Positions 28,962-51,536 of a DNA stretch of 51,536 bases are shown in pieces (the first letter of the stretch is position 1; each line of letters opens with the position of its first letter). A program made the position numbers and the translations under genes. Below the pieces are notes generated by a model. It was given only the letters and a program-made list of their open reading frames with translations, had not been told where the DNA came from and did not search any database. Origin of the DNA: Candidatus Buchananbacteria bacterium RIFCSPHIGHO2_01_FULL_44_11 (GTDB lineage Bacteria; Patescibacteriota; Patescibacteriia; Buchananbacterales; UBA6539); NCBI GenBank assembly GCA_001817345.1, contig MHIE01000003.1, positions 29,423 to 80,958 on the forward strand. Direction: 5' to 3'.

Positions 28962-29639
28962 ATGATGCGCTTACAAAAATTTTTAGCCAACGCCGGCATT
29001 ACCTCGCGCCGCAAAGCTGAAACATTGATTCAATCAGGCAAAATTGAAGTTAACGGCTCAATTGTTAGGGACCTGGGCACAAAAATTGATGAGAACAGTG
29101 ATACGGTCAAATTCGCCAATAGAATCGTCAAGCTAGAAAGTGACAAAATTTATATCGCCCTAAACAAACCAACCGGCTACATCAGCAGCACCGATAGCCA
29201 GCAGGGCAAAACAATTCTAGACATAATCAAAGTCAAAAACCGGGTTTACCCGGTCGGCCGGCTGGACAAAGATTCCAGCGGTTTAATTATTTTAACTAAC
29301 GACGGAGAATTCGCTAACCTGATTACCCACGCCCGCTACGGCTGCCAAAAAGAATACTTTGTGACTTTAGATCAAGATTTGCGGTCCGAGCATATTAAAA
29401 TTTTAGAAAAGGGGATGATTTTAGCCGGCCGCAAACTCCAGCCGGTCAGAGTGACAGCCGCTCAGAATAAATCGGCCAGGATGGTTTTGAGTGAAGGCTT
29501 AAACCGGCAAATCCGCCGGATGCTGGGCAAACTCGGCTATACGGTGATAAAATTAAAAAGAATCAAAATCGGCAAGCTGGAATTGGCGGATTTGGAGCCA
29601 GGCCAGTGGCGCCACATCAAACCCGAAAACGTCATCTGA
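28962..29639 (+). CDS. rRNA pseudouridine synthase (RsuA/RluB family)
   Basis: MRLQKFLA..SRRKAE S4 domain, LNKPTGY, VGRLDKDSSGL, EGLNRQIRRM. Confidence 0.92.
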   Translation: MMRLQKFLANAGITSRRKAETLIQSGKIEVNGSIVRDLGTKIDENSDTVKFANRIVKLESDKIYIALNKPTGYISSTDSQQGKTILDIIKVKNRVYPVGRLDKDSSGLIILTNDGEFANLITHARYGCQKEYFVTLDQDLRSEHIKILEKGMILAGRKLQPVRVTAAQNKSARMVLSEGLNRQIRRMLGKLGYTVIKLKRIKIGKLELADLEPGQWRHIKPENVI

Positions 29640-45327: not shown

Positions 45328-46026
45328 ATGACCAGCCCAGTCAAACCAACTTTTAAAACCGAGGTTTTACCGCTCAGCCTGATTGCCTTGTCAGTGGTTG
45401 CCAGTTTTTATTTTTATGCCAATTTTCCCGACCAGGTGCCGATTCACTGGAATTACCAGGGAGAAATTGACGACTATGCCAGCAAAGAATTCGGCGCTTT
45501 CTTTTTTCCCGCTTTAATTTTAGGCATTTACCTGATGTTTTTATTCATTCCGTTTCTTGACCCCAAAAAAGAGCGCTATCAGGATTTTCGCAAGGCTTAC
45601 CATGTTTTCAAAGCGGCGATTATTATTTTCATGGTTTTAATTTATGGCTACACCGGCTTAGCCGGTTTGGGTTACGACATTCCGATCGCCACGGTTATCC
45701 CGTCAGCCGTCGGCATTTTATGTATCATCATCGGCAATTACCTGGGCAAAATAAAAACCAACTGGTTTATGGGTATTCGCACGCCCTGGACTTTATCTAA
45801 TGACGAAGTCTGGAATAAAACCAACCGGCTGGGCGGCAAAATGTTTATTGTCATGGGTTTAATCATGGTTTTTGCCCCGCTGCTCCAAATGAATAGCGAG
45901 ATTTTCTGGTGGATTTTTATCGTCAGCATCGCCGTTGTCGCCATTATTCCCATTGTTTATTCCTATATTTTATATCGAAAAATTGAAAAAAATACCTCAA
46001 ATCAGCCAAAAAACGACCAGCCATAG
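45328..46026 (+). CDS. sdpI: SdpI family immunity membrane protein (DUF1648 plus SdpI)
   Basis: PDQVPIHWNYQGEID, NWFMGIRTPWTLSNDEVWNKTNRLGG. Confidence 0.88.
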   Translation: MTSPVKPTFKTEVLPLSLIALSVVASFYFYANFPDQVPIHWNYQGEIDDYASKEFGAFFFPALILGIYLMFLFIPFLDPKKERYQDFRKAYHVFKAAIIIFMVLIYGYTGLAGLGYDIPIATVIPSAVGILCIIIGNYLGKIKTNWFMGIRTPWTLSNDEVWNKTNRLGGKMFIVMGLIMVFAPLLQMNSEIFWWIFIVSIAVVAIIPIVYSYILYRKIEKNTSNQPKNDQP

Positions 46027-46031
46027 GACTA

Positions 46032-46060
46032 TTGACAAAATGAAGATTTTGGTATATACT
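46032..46060 (+). promoter_or_regulatory. Sigma70-type promoter of the GC-rich orphan gene
   Basis: TTGACA-17-TATACT. Confidence 0.75.
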
Positions 46061-46238
46061 ACCATAATATTCAGCTAAAATACGCTAGAATACAAAAATT
46101 ACCGAGCTGGATAGAAAGGAGGAAAGCCAGCTCTTTTCACAAGACGCTACTGCGAAGTAGCAAGGGGAATACTTTTTTAGGAGTTAATTTAACTTCTAAA
46201 CAAAGGCAGTAATCCTTTGAGCCAAGAGGAGAGTCATC

Positions 46239-46778
46239 ATGCATCGAACCCGACTGTGTACCTTGGCCATTATGGCCCTTATTGCATTCACGACGAATTC
46301 CGCAACGACCACGGCGCGCGGCGCGACGACCGACGTCGGCATGACGACCCAACATTTGATCATCGGGTCCACCGACTCCGCCCGGCCCGGCACCGCTTCG
46401 ACTCACATGACCGCCTACGACGGCCTGACCCTGGCGTTCGGCACCGATGCCGAGAAGACGTATACCCACGTCAACAATTATGCCACGGCCGGCCAGACCA
46501 AGATCGACGATTACTTCATGTTCTCGACCGCGCCCGACTCCGGGCGAACCTACCAGATGACCGGCGCCATTATGACACCAACCGCGCTGGCCGTCGTTAC
46601 CGACAACCAGAACCTCTACCAATGGACCGGCGGTGACCGCGCCTGGGTGATCGCAACGGCCCGCATGACCGAATTGATCGCTCAACAGGAGCATTTTTCC
46701 GCCTTGGCCACGAGCCAATACGCCGTGTCCACCGGCACCTGCGTCGCCACCCCGACGCGACTCCCGCTCCGATGCTGA
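46239..46778 (+). CDS. GC-rich, Thr/Ala-rich hypothetical exported protein
   Basis: SD GAGGAG; signal-peptide-like N-terminus; strong third-position G/C bias in this frame; terminator 46854-46893. Confidence 0.65.
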   Translation: MHRTRLCTLAIMALIAFTTNSATTTARGATTDVGMTTQHLIIGSTDSARPGTASTHMTAYDGLTLAFGTDAEKTYTHVNNYATAGQTKIDDYFMFSTAPDSGRTYQMTGAIMTPTALAVVTDNQNLYQWTGGDRAWVIATARMTELIAQQEHFSALATSQYAVSTGTCVATPTRLPLRC

Positions 46779-46902
46779 CTGAATGAAGCATTATCCTCTC
46801 CGTCCCCGCTCACGCCATTAGTTAACGCCAAAGCGTTAACCTGACCTTAATCCGAGACGGACCTTACCCCCAAAGGCCCGTCTCTTTCTTTTTATTATTT
46901 TT

Positions 46903-47020
46903 CCCCTCCTTTTTAAGGAGGGGCTAGGCCTGCTTGCCGAAGCCAACGATTTTAGTGAGTTCGGCGCAGGCAAGGGTGGTTTATTAACCCCTCCTAACCT
47001 CCCCTTGAAAAGGGGAGGAA
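46903..47020. repeat. REP-like palindrome pair with an inserted GC-clamped hairpin
   Basis: CCCTCCTT-TTT-AAGGAGGG, GCCTGC..GCCGAA/TTCGGC-GCAGGC, CCTCCCCTT-GAA-AAGGGGAGG. Confidence 0.7.
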
Positions 47021-47043
47021 TTTTAACTTAATATTTTAACACC

Positions 47044-47075
47044 AAAAAAGAAAAGACTCGGGATTCGAGTCTTTT
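47044..47075 (-). terminator. Intrinsic terminator, strongest for minus-strand transcription
   Basis: AAAAGACTCG-GGATT-CGAGTCTTTT with an additional upstream A run. Confidence 0.75.
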
Positions 47076-47079
47076 GCAA

Positions 47080-47680
47080 GGTGCGAAGAAGATGGCCGCC
47101 GATGACTTAATTTCTGCTTTAGAGCAGGAAATTAAGTAATTCGGAAGTCAGCCGGATGACGGCGGCGGCAATCTCCAAGGTGAGCAAGTTCGCTACCAAT
47201 TCCTTATGATGTCTTAAGCTCCGCGGTTTGCTGATAAAGTCCATATGGTTTTGACTTAATAATAGCGGAGGGTAAGACCGCCAGGGGACTAGCCTGGGGG
47301 TAGCGAGTTAACTCGCCTGTTGTCCTCCTTTAACTACCGACTGGAATCGGCAGCTAGAGAAGGGCAACATTTTAGTTTTCAATGACCAAGCGGTAATCTT
47401 TGTCTCGGCCTAAAGAAGACGGCCGGCCGGTCAGGATATTACAATTTTTAGAAAGGCTGGGGAAAGCGCAGATACGCTTCCCCTAAGTGCAACGGCAGAA
47501 GAGAGCTCAATTGACCGTGGCTGGCCAGTTAGACGAACGGTGACCATTTTTCTTTCTAGCCACAAAACGACCGCGGTCGTAACCGCGGTTGATGGCTCAA
47601 TTGAATTGTCTGGTTTTAGTATAACACAACCCCGGTTACATCTTCTGCCTGTTGTCAAACAGCATAGACGTGCCAGTTTG
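47080..47680. ncRNA. Candidate large structured ncRNA (~600 nt), family not recognised
   Basis: Consecutive hairpins and multi-way junctions across the interval; no convincing ORF. Confidence 0.45.
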
Positions 47681-47806
47681 TGTTTATATTGTTTTGTTTT
47701 AGCGAATATTTTTAAATTTAGCTTATCTAACCTGCCTACCGATGAAGACGAAGAATCGCTGGAAAAGTTACAGCCCCAAAAACGGCTAATTGATAACAGT
47801 TAAATT

Positions 47807-48751
47807 TCAGTCTTTTTTTAAGGGATGAAATTTACCATGGGTTTCTTCGGCGTATCTGTCCGAAGCGTGGACATAACGGGTGGTGGTGTCCAGTGACTCG
47901 TGGCCCAATAAAATTTGGATCGCCGCCGGATTGGCGCCGTTTTCGGCTAAATAAGTCGCAAAACCGTGGCGCAGGCCGTGAGCCGAAATCGGAATGTTGA
48001 TTTTTAGTTTCTCCCGGTAAAACTTAATTCGTTCTTGCAAATAATTAGTCGAAATCCGTCGTTTATATGCGGCTTTATCATTAGCGTTACTACCGCGATA
48101 GGGAATAAACAGCGCCTGCAAATTATCAGTCCGGTGTTTCAGGTAACTATTGAGATGATTGAACGCCCGGGGTGTCATATAGACAAAACGCTGCTTTTTG
48201 CCTTTACCTTGGATAAAAATCCGACCGGTATGATCAATGTGGGCCCGATTCAGACTTAGCAACTCGGAAATACGCATGCCAGTTGAGAAAAGCATTTCCA
48301 GCATCGCTCGGTTTCGATCGGCCACCGCTTTATTATTTTCCAGAACGCTGGGTGATTCGATCAGTTTCACCAGTTCATCCATTTCAGCGACGTGAGCGTG
48401 CTTGCGTTCGGTTTTGACCAATTTAACTGCTTCGGGCGGAATTGGTGTTTTAATATCCATTTCAATCAAATACTTTAAATACGAACGTAAACTGGATAAA
48501 AAACGGTTTAAGGAATAGCTTTGCAGTTTTTTATGAGTCACTTGATCTTCGGCGGTTTTCCGGTCAATGGAATTTAAATAAGCTTTGTAGCGGTTAATCG
48601 CCTGCTTATCAACCTTAGAAAAGGGGATAGCCGTCTCTGTAAGGAAATTTTCAAAAACTTTCAAATCCCGTTCATAATTATAAACAGTTTCATCGGAATA
48701 ATGTTTATCCAAAAGATGCTGATGAAAACTGGCAAGGTAAGGTAAATTCAT
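47807..48751 (-). CDS. Xer-like tyrosine recombinase (downstream copy)
   Basis: N-terminal SAM-like domain; LFSTGMRISEL, GKGKKQR, HGLRHGFAT, LLGH, TTTRYVH (catalytic R-K-H-R-H-Y intact). Confidence 0.93.
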   Translation of the reverse strand: MNLPYLASFHQHLLDKHYSDETVYNYERDLKVFENFLTETAIPFSKVDKQAINRYKAYLNSIDRKTAEDQVTHKKLQSYSLNRFLSSLRSYLKYLIEMDIKTPIPPEAVKLVKTERKHAHVAEMDELVKLIESPSVLENNKAVADRNRAMLEMLFSTGMRISELLSLNRAHIDHTGRIFIQGKGKKQRFVYMTPRAFNHLNSYLKHRTDNLQALFIPYRGSNANDKAAYKRRISTNYLQERIKFYREKLKINIPISAHGLRHGFATYLAENGANPAAIQILLGHESLDTTTRYVHASDRYAEETHGKFHPLKKD

Positions 48752-48753
48752 AC

Positions 48754-49263
48754 TCAAAATGTTTCAAATTCAAGTAAAGTGCGCTCAGCCGGAATGCATA
48801 GAAAAATACAGTTCTTCATTGTCGAAAGATTAATCCACATCTTATAGATTGATACCGTCCCAACTTCGACATACAAGTCTTTTTTACCGTCATAAAATAC
48901 CCCCAAGTCGGCACGACCGTTATTTAAAATTGGTTCAGTTGTTACATCAAAACCCTGTGTCGTAAAATATGTATCAATCATATTCATCATACCCTGATGC
49001 CATTCTTTACCATGCTTATGCTTGGTATCACCCAATTTCGAAGATTCTCCCCAGAAATTAGCTTTGTAATTATCCAATTTACGTGCTTTAATTTTTCCAC
49101 TAACAATCATTAAAGCAATCTGTCGATAAGCAAATTCATCACAATGCTGACAACTATCACGACTACCCCACGAAGCAATAAGTTTTTTTAACCAGCTAAT
49201 TTCATCCGAAATCTTTTTTTCGACAATATGCCAAGGTAAATCTGTTCGTCTAACTTGATTCAT
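48754..49263 (-). CDS. Hypothetical protein with a PD-(D/E)xK-like nuclease motif
   Basis: H...GFDVTTE..GRADLGV...YVEVG pattern; CxxC (CQHC); AT-rich. Confidence 0.5.
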   Translation of the reverse strand: MNQVRRTDLPWHIVEKKISDEISWLKKLIASWGSRDSCQHCDEFAYRQIALMIVSGKIKARKLDNYKANFWGESSKLGDTKHKHGKEWHQGMMNMIDTYFTTQGFDVTTEPILNNGRADLGVFYDGKKDLYVEVGTVSIYKMWINLSTMKNCIFLCIPAERTLLEFETF

Positions 49264-49275
49264 TTCAATAGCTAA

Positions 49276-49743
49276 TTAAATTAATCTAAATAAAAAAAAT
49301 AAAACTAGGATAGAGCCAGAAACATACAAAAAGTTAATGAGATGAAAAATTGGATCACTAGCTTTGGGTTCTTTTTTGGTAATCTTTTTGTAGTCATTTG
49401 CCTCTGTTCCATCCAATTGTTCCCCTTGCTGAACTTTATAAAAAAAATAATATTTTCGTTTTAATTGAGACAATTCAAGAGATGAAATATACCAAAAATA
49501 TAATGGTATCGCAACAAAATTAATTGAAATCATTGCAAGTCCAACCAAAGCGAAATTTGAGACAGTGGTTATAAATTTTTGAACAACTAAAGTTATGATG
49601 CCCACCGCCTGAACTGTGCTAGTTGTATAAACTGAAATTAGAAACTTACGCCGCATATTGAGAGATTTCAAACCTATGTCGGCAATATCAGCAATATTTT
49701 TTTCAAGATTCTCATGATTAAAAGTATATAATTTATTGTTCAT
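49276..49743 (-). CDS. AT-rich hypothetical membrane protein (about 3 TM)
   Basis: Two adjacent hydrophobic helices plus a C-terminal one; composition differs from the core genes. Confidence 0.6.
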   Translation of the reverse strand: MNNKLYTFNHENLEKNIADIADIGLKSLNMRRKFLISVYTTSTVQAVGIITLVVQKFITTVSNFALVGLAMISINFVAIPLYFWYISSLELSQLKRKYYFFYKVQQGEQLDGTEANDYKKITKKEPKASDPIFHLINFLYVSGSILVLFFLFRLI

Positions 49744-49778
49744 ATAGTTTAGTACTTCTTTCAACCAATTACAAAAAA

Positions 49779-50750
49779 TTATTTTTTTAATTTCCTGCCA
49801 CTGTGAAAAGCCCGATGGACATCCCGCAAATGCTGGCTGGTGACATGCGTATAAATCTGTGTTGTCACAATATTGCGATGACCCAAAAATTCCTGAATGG
49901 TGCGCAAATCAACACCCTGCTCAAGCAGATCGGTGGCATAAGAATGTCGCAGCGTGTGCGGCGTTGTACTGATAGGTAAACCAGCAATTTTAACGTAGTC
50001 TTTGATTAAACGCTCCACCGAGCGTGTTGTCAACCGTTTCGTCTCGGCCTTTTTATCTTTGCGAAAATTTACAAACAATGCTGGATCAAAGTCTTTTCTA
50101 AGACTCAAATAGCGGTCAAGCGCCTCAAGTGCCCGTGGGGAGAAGTAAACGGTCCGGGTGTAGCCTCCTTTACCGGTAATGGGTAATTCTAAATCAGTGA
50201 CACCTCTTTTTTTGATATATTCAATATTAATTTGGTCTCGATTTAAAGCCACCAATTCACCAACACGCATTCCGGTACTAAATAATACTTCCAAAATTGC
50301 TCCGTCACGTAGATCAATAATTGTTTTTCCGGCAGGGGATAGGAGTAGGCGCTCGACCTGATCAATACTTAAAAAAGAGACTTTTTTGACACTTTTTTCA
50401 CGAACCAAAATTATTTTATCTGCCGGCAAAGCGACGATGTCCTTTGCGGCAAAGTATGTTAAAAGTGCTCGCAAAGCAATTAAATAATAATTTTGAGTCG
50501 TTTTTTTTAAATATCGTCCGTCCTTAGGGCTTTTGCTACGGGATAGAAAGAGGCGATAGCGATAAATGTGCTCACTAGTTAACTCGTGAGGTTTAAGGTT
50601 ATCCAAGCCTTCTTTAATTAGCCAATCGGTAAAACGTTTTAAAAATCGCCCATAATTCTCAACGCTGTTCGAAGACAACCCTTTAACAACATCACTATAA
50701 TCCAAAAAGTCCGTAATATGCTTTACTAGAGGAGTAGCAGATTTATTCAT
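49779..50750 (-). CDS. Xer-like tyrosine recombinase (upstream copy, XerC/D-like)
   Basis: LFSTGMRVGEL, TGKGG, TPHTLRHSYAT, DLRTIQEFLGH, TTQIYTHV. Confidence 0.94.
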   Translation of the reverse strand: MNKSATPLVKHITDFLDYSDVVKGLSSNSVENYGRFLKRFTDWLIKEGLDNLKPHELTSEHIYRYRLFLSRSKSPKDGRYLKKTTQNYYLIALRALLTYFAAKDIVALPADKIILVREKSVKKVSFLSIDQVERLLLSPAGKTIIDLRDGAILEVLFSTGMRVGELVALNRDQINIEYIKKRGVTDLELPITGKGGYTRTVYFSPRALEALDRYLSLRKDFDPALFVNFRKDKKAETKRLTTRSVERLIKDYVKIAGLPISTTPHTLRHSYATDLLEQGVDLRTIQEFLGHRNIVTTQIYTHVTSQHLRDVHRAFHSGRKLKK

Positions 50751-50752
50751 AT

Positions 50753-50780
50753 ACGTCTATTAACCTATATTATGCGACAT
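50753..50780. other. dif-like 28-bp recombination site (11-6-11)
   Basis: ACGTCTATTAA-CCTATA-TTATGCGACAT; arms are 7/11 inverted, with TAA/TTA flanking a 6-bp spacer; TTATGCG matches the E. coli dif XerC arm. Confidence 0.65.
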
Positions 50781-50787
50781 TACTATT

Positions 50788-50816
50788 ATTTTATAAAACA
50801 GCCCAAAATCAGTCAA
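50788..50816 (-). promoter_or_regulatory. Promoter of the recombinase operon
   Basis: TTGACT-17-TAAAAT on the minus strand; DnaA box TTATCCACA at 50823-50831. Confidence 0.7.
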
Positions 50817-50822
50817 CTGGAC

Positions 50823-51536
50823 TTATCCACATAAAGCCTGAATTTCTGATTCCAGACGAATTAATTTATTGCCCTCTAGACCCAAGCGCTTGAATTGATT
50901 CTGATAATTAAGCAGGTCTTTGCATAAAACCACACCTTGGCTTAAAAAATAGCGTTTCTGATCGTTATTTAAGGTCACTAGACTAGTCAACGGGTATAAA
51001 CCTTCAGCTTCGACAAAATTCTGCAAACTTGAGCCGGCCGGATAATCCCAGCTGGTAACTTTAACCCCGGCGCAAAGACCGTATTTTCTGACTTCACTGG
51101 TGACTTTGGTGTTAGTGACAAGCCAGCTTTGCAATTCCCCGCTTTGGGGCTTAGCCCCGATTTTACGTTTTGCGACCCATGCGTTATTAATATCCATGAA
51201 CCGAGCATGGGTGTATAAAATGTCTTTACTGCCGGTTTTAGCACCCGGTCTGACATGGAATTTACATTCAACGATGGCGTGGATGTTTTCTGCCGGAATT
51301 TCCGCGACGACGTCAATTTCATGGCTTAAACAGCGGCCCTGGAAAATCTGATTAATCTGAACCTGGTAACCTTGTTTTTCCAATAAAGCGGCAAAATATT
51401 TCTCAAACGGAAAGCCGCTTGGCCCCAAAGCCATAATCGCCCGCTTCAAATTATACCGAGCGGCATAATGAGCGCCGCTGGCTTTCAGCAAACTAAAAGC
51501 CAGCCGATAAATAGTAGATGTACTCATACCCGGCCG
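50823..51536 (-). CDS. Mrr-like restriction endonuclease family protein (probably ATP-cone fused), truncated by the window end
   Basis: LGPSGFPFEKY, HEIDVVA, VECKFH, LVTNT; the frame stays open to the window edge. Confidence 0.8.
   Translation of the reverse strand, partial: RPGMSTSTIYRLAFSLLKASGAHYAARYNLKRAIMALGPSGFPFEKYFAALLEKQGYQVQINQIFQGRCLSHEIDVVAEIPAENIHAIVECKFHVRPGAKTGSKDILYTHARFMDINNAWVAKRKIGAKPQSGELQSWLVTNTKVTSEVRKYGLCAGVKVTSWDYPAGSSLQNFVEAEGLYPLTSLVTLNNDQKRYFLSQGVVLCKDLLNYQNQFKRLGLEGNKLIRLESEIQALCG

Follow-up and report, generated by a model that had tools for sequence, protein, structure and literature searches.

The stretch of DNA analysed here, 51,536 nucleotides of contig MHIE01000003.1 from Candidatus Buchananbacteria bacterium RIFCSPHIGHO2_01_FULL_44_11 (positions 29,423 to 80,958; hereafter the window), carries near its end an operon in which two Xer-type tyrosine recombinases, termed A and B, enclose two small genes. 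The window is part of a 147-kb contig (C3) of an assembly that comprises 943 kb in 30 contigs and is 78% complete. The operon consists of four co-directional open reading frames (ORFs) on the minus strand with small gaps of 2-35 bp, depending on the choice of start codon, as had been described in an earlier reading of the letters alone (the sequence-only reading). A promoter-like site and a dif-like inverted repeat precede the first gene. The features of the operon, with protein lengths in amino acids (aa), are as follows:

49779-50750, minus strand: Xer recombinase A (xerA-like, A type), 323 aa; an ORF with a Phage_integrase domain and similarity to XerA and XerD
49276-49764, minus strand: ORFan with three predicted transmembrane (TM) stretches, 162 aa (155 aa from the first ATG); an ORF with no family
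48754-49263, minus strand: partner protein, 169 aa, with a predicted PD-(D/E)xK-type fold; an ORF with homologues and a structural model
47807-48757, minus strand: Xer recombinase B (xerB-like, B type), 316 aa (314 aa from the ATG at 48751)
50788..50816, minus strand (read 50816..50788): promoter-like TTGACT-17-TAAAAT ahead of the operon; the top-scoring minus-strand site, 10/12
50753..50780: dif-like inverted repeat of 28 bp between the promoter-like site and the start codon of A

The operon and its two recombinases

The gaps measure 14 bp between A and the TM ORFan (35 bp with the ATG start), 12 bp between the TM ORFan and the partner, and 2 bp between the partner and B, the last being replaced by a 4-bp overlap if B starts at TTG. 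The inner genes had been noted as AT-rich and are so, with a guanine-cytosine (GC) content of 29.0% for the TM ORFan and 35.5% for the 169-aa ORF compared with 40.6% for A, 42.4% for B and 44.1% for the genome. Short contigs from two independent runs are identical to the window sequence and span both the B/169-aa and the TM-ORF/A junctions. A search of sequencing runs listed no RNA run carrying this DNA. Contig joints with sides of 21-34 letters at 85% likeness were assigned to other organisms and set aside.

Both recombinases carry Phage_integrase and N-terminal SAM-like domains (E 1.3e-36 for A and 1.3e-31 for B) and share 33% identity over 312 aa. In 21-sequence family alignments, the catalytic set of A (R162, K194, H265, R268, H291 and Y300) is invariant, as are R160, K183, H258, R261 and H284 of B, whose Y293 is found in at least 90% of the sequences. 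The earlier description of two clearly diverged enzymes that each keep the full catalytic set is thus borne out. XerD, XerC and XerA are the top NCBIfam models for both proteins, all under their curated cut-offs; the XerA model, for example, gives 184 bits for A and 159 bits for B against a cut-off of 220. The XerS model scores 112 and 87 bits (cut-off 267), the integron-integrase model 92.4 and 82.4 bits (cut-off 265), and the GmtY and GmtZ models score far under their cut-offs. Among solved chains, A is nearest to XerA of Pyrococcus abyssi (4a8e, E 1.2e-33) and then to XerD of E. coli (1a0p). The latter chain is also nearest to B (E 8.5e-22), for which XerH is a weak structural-database match (E 2.5e-11).

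A single promoter had been proposed to drive all four genes, and the top promoter-like site is indeed found ahead of the operon. The promoter scan of the region returned 16 sites, compared to 10.1 +/- 3.1 in shuffled sequences, and since this total is little above that of the shuffles the scan alone is weak evidence. In related loci, the upstream sequence runs in the same order, from a TTGACA-like hexamer through a -10-like hexamer and a dif-like site to the start codon. The dif-like site of the window reads ATGTCGCATAA TATAGG TTAATAGACGT on the minus strand, from 50780 to 50753. Its two 11-bp arms are complementary at 7 of 11 positions and flank a 6-bp centre, and the site ends 2 bp ahead of the start of A. 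Only a single copy exists in the 943-kb assembly when up to 6 mismatches are allowed.

Conservation of the triad and its predicted nuclease-fold partner

Relatives of the 169-aa partner were followed in 49 loci, collected by a scan of one genome per species and belonging to many Patescibacteria lineages and to Dehalococcoidia. An A type upstream, the partner, and a B type downstream lie on one strand in 40 of the 49 loci. A same-strand recombinase is found directly upstream in 48 loci (47 nearer to A and 1 nearer to B), and the remaining locus begins at a contig end. Similarly, a recombinase is found directly downstream in 43 loci (41 nearer to B and 2 nearer to A), and one of the 6 loci that lack it ends at a contig end. 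The partner homologue always lies beside recombinases in the loci examined, and the A-partner-B order is a conserved unit.

Gene fusions tie the partner more closely to its neighbours. In 7 loci (L081, L082, L083, L085, L101, L111 and L119), the partner is joined to an A-like part in one ORF of 438-501 aa, and in L096 it is joined to B, so that partner-recombinase fusions total 8 loci. The fused A part is degenerate, with the first catalytic Arg changed to Lys in 5/7, the beta-hairpin Lys region deleted in 5/7 and the His of HxxR changed to Glu in 6/7, while the motifs of the 169-aa family are retained. In addition, two homologues of the partner of about 290 aa have an N-terminal part that resembles the end of a degenerate recombinase. 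The fusions argue that the partner works with the recombinases. In the literature searched, nothing was found that describes an Xer pair with a nuclease-fold protein between its members or fused to one of them. In a separate case, the C-terminal tail of P0002, a protein 67% identical to the 169-aa protein, is similar to the end of recombinase B, as though all but the final codons of B had been deleted in this near relative.

The leader site was assessable in 42 of the 49 loci, using the 150 bp upstream of the first gene as the search window. A strict palindrome rule (6-8 bp centre) places a site in 27/42 loci against a background of 0.126 per search window, and a rule based on a shared left-arm word does so in 18/42 against a background of 0.006. 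The union of the two rules covers 33/42 loci, and most of the others show related inverted repeats by eye. Related sites also occur upstream of A-type genes in relatives. The arms of the site in the window are asymmetric, and so are those of the relatives with A only, which bears on the question of whether each arm serves one recombinase. The leader site of Dehalococcoidia is a near-perfect palindrome of different sequence, and the fusion loci with a dead A have a third site type, the palindrome that precedes B in relatives with B only. No positionally conserved second dif-like site was found inside or after the triad, and a possible remnant of a B-type site at the partner/B junction, with about 10/28 matches by eye, is at chance level.

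The members of the triad do not change at the same pace. Between the Dehalococcoidia loci L091 and L084, A is 93%, the partner 72% and B 56% identical. More generally, the B genes behind Dehalococcoidia A genes that are 90-93% identical fall into two types with 54-56% mutual identity, and the leader site is common to both. One type is found in L084, L089, L097, L105, L106 and L122, and the other in L091, L103, L104 and others. Because these Dehalococcoidia share A and the site and differ in B, B is, to judge from these comparisons, the exchangeable or fast-changing member of the triad, and the site appears to follow A.

The partner itself has 76 homologues at 40-67% identity in a large protein collection, and four of them carry a precomputed Pfam accession, PF28130. 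An AlphaFold model built from a 24-sequence alignment (predicted local distance difference test, pLDDT, 88; predicted template modelling score, pTM, 0.82) consists of an N-terminal helical part and a C-terminal alpha/beta domain at residues ~83-169. This domain matches a putative restriction endonuclease domain (9y1l) over 86 aligned residues with a Z score of 6.2 and a root-mean-square deviation of 2.8. Further fold matches include a VRR-NUC protein (4qbn, Z 5.9), the Holliday junction resolvase Hjc (1hh1, Z 5.0) and the XisH-like 2okf (Z 3.9). A Foldseek search of the partner against the PDB gave no match at E <= 0.001 (best E 0.03), and its weak list consists almost entirely of PD-(D/E)xK nucleases. 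The invariant residues of the family are E110, D119 (within GRADLG), E133 and K141, and 15 of 24 family members give weak matches to PDDEXK_9. As such, the model, with moderate Z scores, points to a PD-(D/E)xK-superfamily fold and makes the partner a predicted nuclease.

Other searches with the inner proteins were less informative. A profile search of the partner against PDB sequences returned nothing at E <= 10, PHROGs families matched the inner proteins only above E 0.1, and a search of the ESM Atlas gave unnamed clusters only. Searches of viral contigs and plasmids yielded no real relatives of the partner and no real matches to the module.

The TM ORFan presents a different picture. It has three hydrophobic stretches, no Pfam, NCBIfam, PADLOC or PHROGs family was assigned to it, it matches only itself among 5.8 billion proteins, and tblastn found no match to it across the 49 related loci. 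The spacing from A to the partner is 515 bp in the window and at most 53 bp in 30 other loci. The TM ORFan is therefore a lineage-specific insertion between xerA and the partner gene, and it is the sole variable element.

These results bear directly on the idea, put forward in the sequence-only reading, that the interval is a slot for variable, perhaps defence-related, cargo exchanged without attC sites. Such a slot, filled by Xer-type recombination, would resemble integron cassettes or the pdif modules of Acinetobacter. The low GC content (29%) and lineage specificity of the TM ORFan, at a position that spans at most 53 bp elsewhere, could be taken in its favour, and a precedent exists in the modules flanked by Xer sites that are described in part of PMC12907356 for Acinetobacter. 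However, the other inner gene is invariant, flanked by an A type and a B type in 40 of the 49 loci and fused to the upstream recombinase in 7, and the cargo-slot reading fails because this 169-aa gene is conserved between A and B types. Invariance of the inner genes among relatives, which the sequence-only reading itself had held to be incompatible with a slot, was thus found for the 169-aa gene, the TM ORFan being lineage-specific instead. A list of the genes between tandem recombinases across the 49 loci holds the partner only, with no varied cargo and no additional genes in the A-B interval. Furthermore, the repeat search around the interval revealed no convincing direct or inverted repeats, and no dif-like or other repeat flanks the ORFan apart from an A/T-only 15-mer. 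A role in defence finds no footing either, as PADLOC at E <= 1 returned no model for the TM ORF, the 169-aa protein or the neighbouring ATP-cone/Mrr protein. Unlike in an integron (IntI with attI/attC), the recombinases score far below the integrase cut-off (92 and 82 bits against 265) and no repeated sites surround the inner genes. We therefore regard a cargo slot as very improbable.

A candidate Xer/dif module and its alternatives

The position of the operon on the chromosome can be judged from gene orientation. Per 10-kb bin of contig C3, plus-strand ORFs cover 7.8-10.3 kb and minus-strand ORFs at most 0.5 kb between 1 and 60 kb, and minus-strand ORFs cover 7.1-9.8 kb and plus-strand ORFs at most 1.5 kb between 80 and 140 kb. 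The switch lies at 60-80 kb, and the operon, at 77.2-80.2 kb, is inside it; mean GC skew changes weakly across the switch, from about 0 to about -0.05. Across the 49 loci, the upstream ORF bases are co-directional with the triad for 96% in Patescibacteria and 79% in Dehalococcoidia, and the downstream ORF bases are on the opposite strand for 83% and 84%, respectively. As gene orientation flips at the operon, which is expected where dif sites lie, the operon appears to lie at the replication terminus, where the two arms of replication come together.

FtsK with a gamma domain was found in 5/5 other triad genomes and in 38/41 genomes of the search for relatives (own genome included). A role of the partner as a substitute for a missing FtsK gamma domain was considered and dropped, since triad genomes do have FtsK-gamma. 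In three small genomes with the triad (G041, G042 and G045), its recombinase genes are the only strong integrase-family matches, the matches of any strength numbering 2 in G045 and 3 in each of the other two. Five integrase-family genes occur in the assembly studied here, A and B included. Of the others, one lies beside a 23S-rRNA-IVP-type protein, one lies before a serine-recombinase-like ORF and one is ended by TAA. The second of these, on contig C13 (L002), encodes a 296-aa tyrosine recombinase that overlaps the start of an ORF of more than 483 aa, serine-recombinase-like by eye, and together they are probably a separate mobile element.

Taken together, the locus is probably the organism's Xer/dif module for chromosome dimer resolution, in a rare three-protein form with a nuclease-fold partner. 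After a crossover between sister chromosomes, A would act at the leader site to convert the dimer to monomers, perhaps paired with B in the manner of XerC and XerD. The partner would join A in one complex and serve there as a subunit for regulation or strand processing. With the site placed between promoter and start codon, recombinase bound there would probably also throttle transcription of the operon. The TM ORFan would be a recent insertion into the operon and stand outside the machine.

Several observations weigh against this explanation. The triad is rare, the partner being found in 2 of 401 genomes sampled across the phylum and in none of 40 relatives save for a weak partial match, and because of this rarity the partner cannot be a general requirement of Xer function. 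Its fold matches are of moderate strength (best Z 6.2, best Foldseek E 0.03), and Gly replaces the canonical Lys of its ExK motif, K141 lying 8 residues past E133. B is decayed, as a split gene or a remnant, in at least 7 loci (L078, L098, L100, L108, L110, L113 and L121). The Dehalococcoidia comparison argues that the leader site belongs to A rather than to the A/B pair, and the B-type palindrome of relatives with B only was not found in the assembly studied here at up to 6 mismatches. The inferred terminus rests on gene orientation and a weak skew along one 147-kb contig of a 78%-complete assembly. Finally, neither the motor nor the gamma domain of FtsK was found in this 78%-complete assembly, which most likely reflects an assembly gap. 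A prediction of the complex of A, B and the partner, made without controls, scored 0.00 in both runs and speaks neither for nor against the module.

A stronger role for the partner can also be imagined, as the catalytic third subunit of the Xer machine, docked on A and cutting either the junction or a resident dif site. In the first option, the partner would cut the Holliday junction after one pair of strand exchanges, so that recombinase and nuclease would share the reaction. In the second, it would cleave a resident dif-type site, and a module of site and recombinase would invade and replace other Xer systems across phyla. We hold such a catalytic role to be rather unlikely.

Comparison with known systems helps to place the operon. 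To our knowledge, Xer/dif is a well-studied housekeeping reaction whose known forms consist of one or two recombinases plus FtsK. As a rule, xerC and xerD lie apart from each other and from dif, and the linkage of two diverged Xer-type recombinases in one operon, rightly pointed out before, is unusual. Like the XerC/XerD-dif system of E. coli and most bacteria, the operon encodes two diverged Xer paralogues with full catalytic sets, its site of ~28 bp has two 11-bp arms and a 6-8 bp centre at a terminus-consistent position, and related genomes encode FtsK with a gamma domain. It differs in that both genes and the site lie in one operon with a conserved nuclease-fold protein in between, in scores under the XerC and XerD equivalog cut-offs, and in a site that tracks A and not B in Dehalococcoidia. 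Archaeal XerA works alone and without FtsK. XerA of Pyrococcus abyssi is the nearest solved relative of A, although A and B score under the XerA cut-off and FtsK-gamma is present in the related genomes.

Single-recombinase modules offer a further parallel. In the relevant parts of the respective papers, the site is described immediately beside the recombinase gene for XerS/difSL of streptococci and lactococci, as one module (PMC5357621), and for XerH/difH of Campylobacterota (PMC2731167); a recombinase and its adjacent site are likewise treated as one genetic module in a passage of PMC1914069. The site lies beside the recombinase here as well, and close relatives consist of one recombinase with an upstream palindromic site. 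The operon differs from these modules in its two intact recombinases and third protein, and in its low XerS score and the weak XerH match of B.

Tandem tyrosine recombinases, sometimes with a small extra protein, are also found in mobile elements. Tn554-type elements carry TnpA/TnpB/TnpC. RIT (recombinase-in-trio) elements are mentioned in PMC8138268, which also names a subgroup, 'Cand', that consists of Xer-related recombinases of candidate phyla. The operon resembles these elements and the gamma-mobile-trio in its tandem recombinases. It differs from them in having no cargo and no terminal repeats, in its fixed slot at the orientation switch in two phyla, in its low GmtY and GmtZ scores and in recombinases of the Xer group. 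The XisH/XisI system works with a serine recombinase. XisH-type proteins, the fdxN-element excision controlling factors, are similar to the partner in being small restriction-endonuclease-fold proteins encoded with a recombinase. However, the 2okf match is weak and ranks under many other nucleases, and the profile search of PDB sequences gave no sequence similarity of the partner to the XisH type.

The history of the locus can be followed in 40 relatives, in which the slot is marked by homologues of the Pfam-named neighbours in the window, with Peptidase_M23 on one side and an FtsQ-type protein, D-Ala-D-Ala ligase and sometimes the ATP-cone/Mrr protein on the other. At this slot, 14 relatives have a single B type (60-75% identity, and 70-75% for the single slot recombinase of same-family relatives) and 5 have a single A type (58-66% identity). 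Neighbour homologues (Peptidase_M23, FtsQ-type or ATP-cone/Mrr) are present at 13/14 B-type and 4/5 A-type loci, and a near-perfect palindrome lies 20-550 bp upstream in 12/14 of the B-only loci. The partner gene was found in none of the 40 relatives, the weak match being a partial one of 36 positions in G033. In G027 (L056 8039-9329), an intact B precedes, by 62 bp, a fragment that shares 60% identity with residues 220-321 of A; no partner lies between the two, B comes first, and their orientation to the flanks is inverted.

Such relatives, with one or the other recombinase at the slot, raise the possibility that the operon consists of two single-recombinase Xer systems side by side in mid-replacement, with A and its site working, B an orphan and the inner genes unrelated. 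The missing B-type palindrome and the decay of B in at least 7 related loci would be in keeping with this. However, the A-partner-B order and strand are kept in 40/49 loci from two phyla, B is full length here with all its catalytic residues, and the partner is fused to recombinases in 8 loci. A transient accident is implausible because the triad is far too regular, and this explanation appears improbable to us.

A third type, A2 (42-49% identity to A), occurs elsewhere in 18 relatives. At the A2 loci (L065-L072, and L004 on contig C6 of the assembly studied here), a tRNA-like sequence lies just downstream in 8/9 and a shared upstream word occurs in 7/9. The C6 copy has a TAA just past the catalytic Tyr region and a long branch, and the G009 copy of A2 is also interrupted by a stop. 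In a quick tree of 96 recombinases, which is midpoint-rooted and has long outgroup branches, the C6 gene groups with the A2 type, A2 groups with the A clade, and the A clade and B clade stand apart with Dehalococcoidia and Patescibacteria in each. In the same tree, the B of the window groups with B-only genes of its own family, and its A with A-only genes of G025 and G030, from two other families of the same order. A sample of 401 genomes of the phylum, searched with cut-offs of E <= 1e-70 for the B type and E <= 1e-60 for the A clade, yielded 2 genomes with the partner, 17 with the B type and 274 with an A-clade protein; the last count takes in an unpublished genome (G199), and no conclusion rests on it. 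Of the 16 other genomes with a B type, only 3 appear in the A list as well. Between Patescibacteria and Dehalococcoidia, B is 64-67% identical.

Overall, the relatives fit an older three-gene unit of which, time and again, a single recombinase would have been left. As the partner is rare and B is similar across phyla, there is room for horizontal spread. This is the core of another explanation, in which a horizontally moving Xer/dif replacement cassette of site, A and nuclease displaces the resident Xer system at the terminus and is later pared down to one recombinase; the nuclease would help the cassette to invade or to be retained, for instance as an addiction factor or by cutting the site of the resident system. 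The patchy spread in the 401 genomes and the occurrence of the triad in two phyla would suit such a cassette, as would the nesting of Patescibacteria B within Dehalococcoidia B in the quick tree. The same can be said of the presence of A or B at one slot within single families, of the B with an A fragment in G027, and of A2 genes elsewhere that are truncated here and stop-interrupted in G009. The partner, moreover, is far rarer than either recombinase, as expected if it is needed early only. Linked xer-dif modules are also in print, as portions of the papers on xerS/difSL (PMC5357621) and difH (PMC2731167) describe. On the other side, there are no terminal repeats, no second flanking site, and no real matches on viral contigs or plasmids. 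The tree behind the argument is quick, with its midpoint root and long outgroup branches, and within it A and B of the window group with relatives of the same order, as under vertical descent with differential loss. Furthermore, fusions of the partner to dead recombinases are kept as intact ORFs in 7 species, which suggests a lasting rather than a transient function of the partner. A replacement cassette is thus a possible but unlikely alternative to a resident dimer-resolution module.

Surroundings and wider meaning

Two further features adjoin the operon:

50823..51536, continuing to 51674, minus strand: gene for an ATP-cone + Mrr_cat + AF1548-like_C protein, 283 aa; a neighbour outside the module
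46027..47806: convergence zone from the end of the SdpI-like gene (46026), the last plus-strand gene, to xerB; no family-assigned gene

The upstream Mrr-like gene had been recognised from its letters, and its domains agree with that identification. It also adjoins the slot recombinase in G002, G011 and L119 and is missing from most related loci. Past the end of the window (L006, ~1370-1420), a short run of N lies in an intergenic stretch of 56-59% GC between the ATP-cone/Mrr gene and an FtsQ-type gene.

The convergence zone has an odd composition, with terminator-like hairpins at 46998-47018 (plus strand) and 47075-47051 (minus strand). An Rfam scan of 46000-51536 gave chance-level matches only and no RNA family. 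At the strand-switch point, 46137-46800 forms an island of 62-65% GC in a genome of 44% GC; it is not unique, as the assembly contains 44 islands of at least 58% GC. The island holds an ORF of 179 aa (46239-46778, plus strand) with no significant family, its sole Pfam match having an E of 0.054. In addition, a 37-nt stretch of this gene-free zone at ~46945-46981 has copies on contigs C18 (97% identity) and C22 (83%) and may be a small dispersed repeat.

If the partner does have a catalytic role, it would represent a mode of Xer recombination or of Xer-system turnover for which no prior description was found. Natural intermediates are at hand, including fusions of the partner to a dead recombinase, descendants that retain A or B alone with a palindromic site of their own, and two B types behind near-identical A genes. 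These make the operon a compact and testable system for how Xer systems gain partners, switch sites and replace each other. Moreover, in Patescibacteria and Dehalococcoidia genomes, whose skew signals are weak, the operon points to the probable position of the replication terminus.

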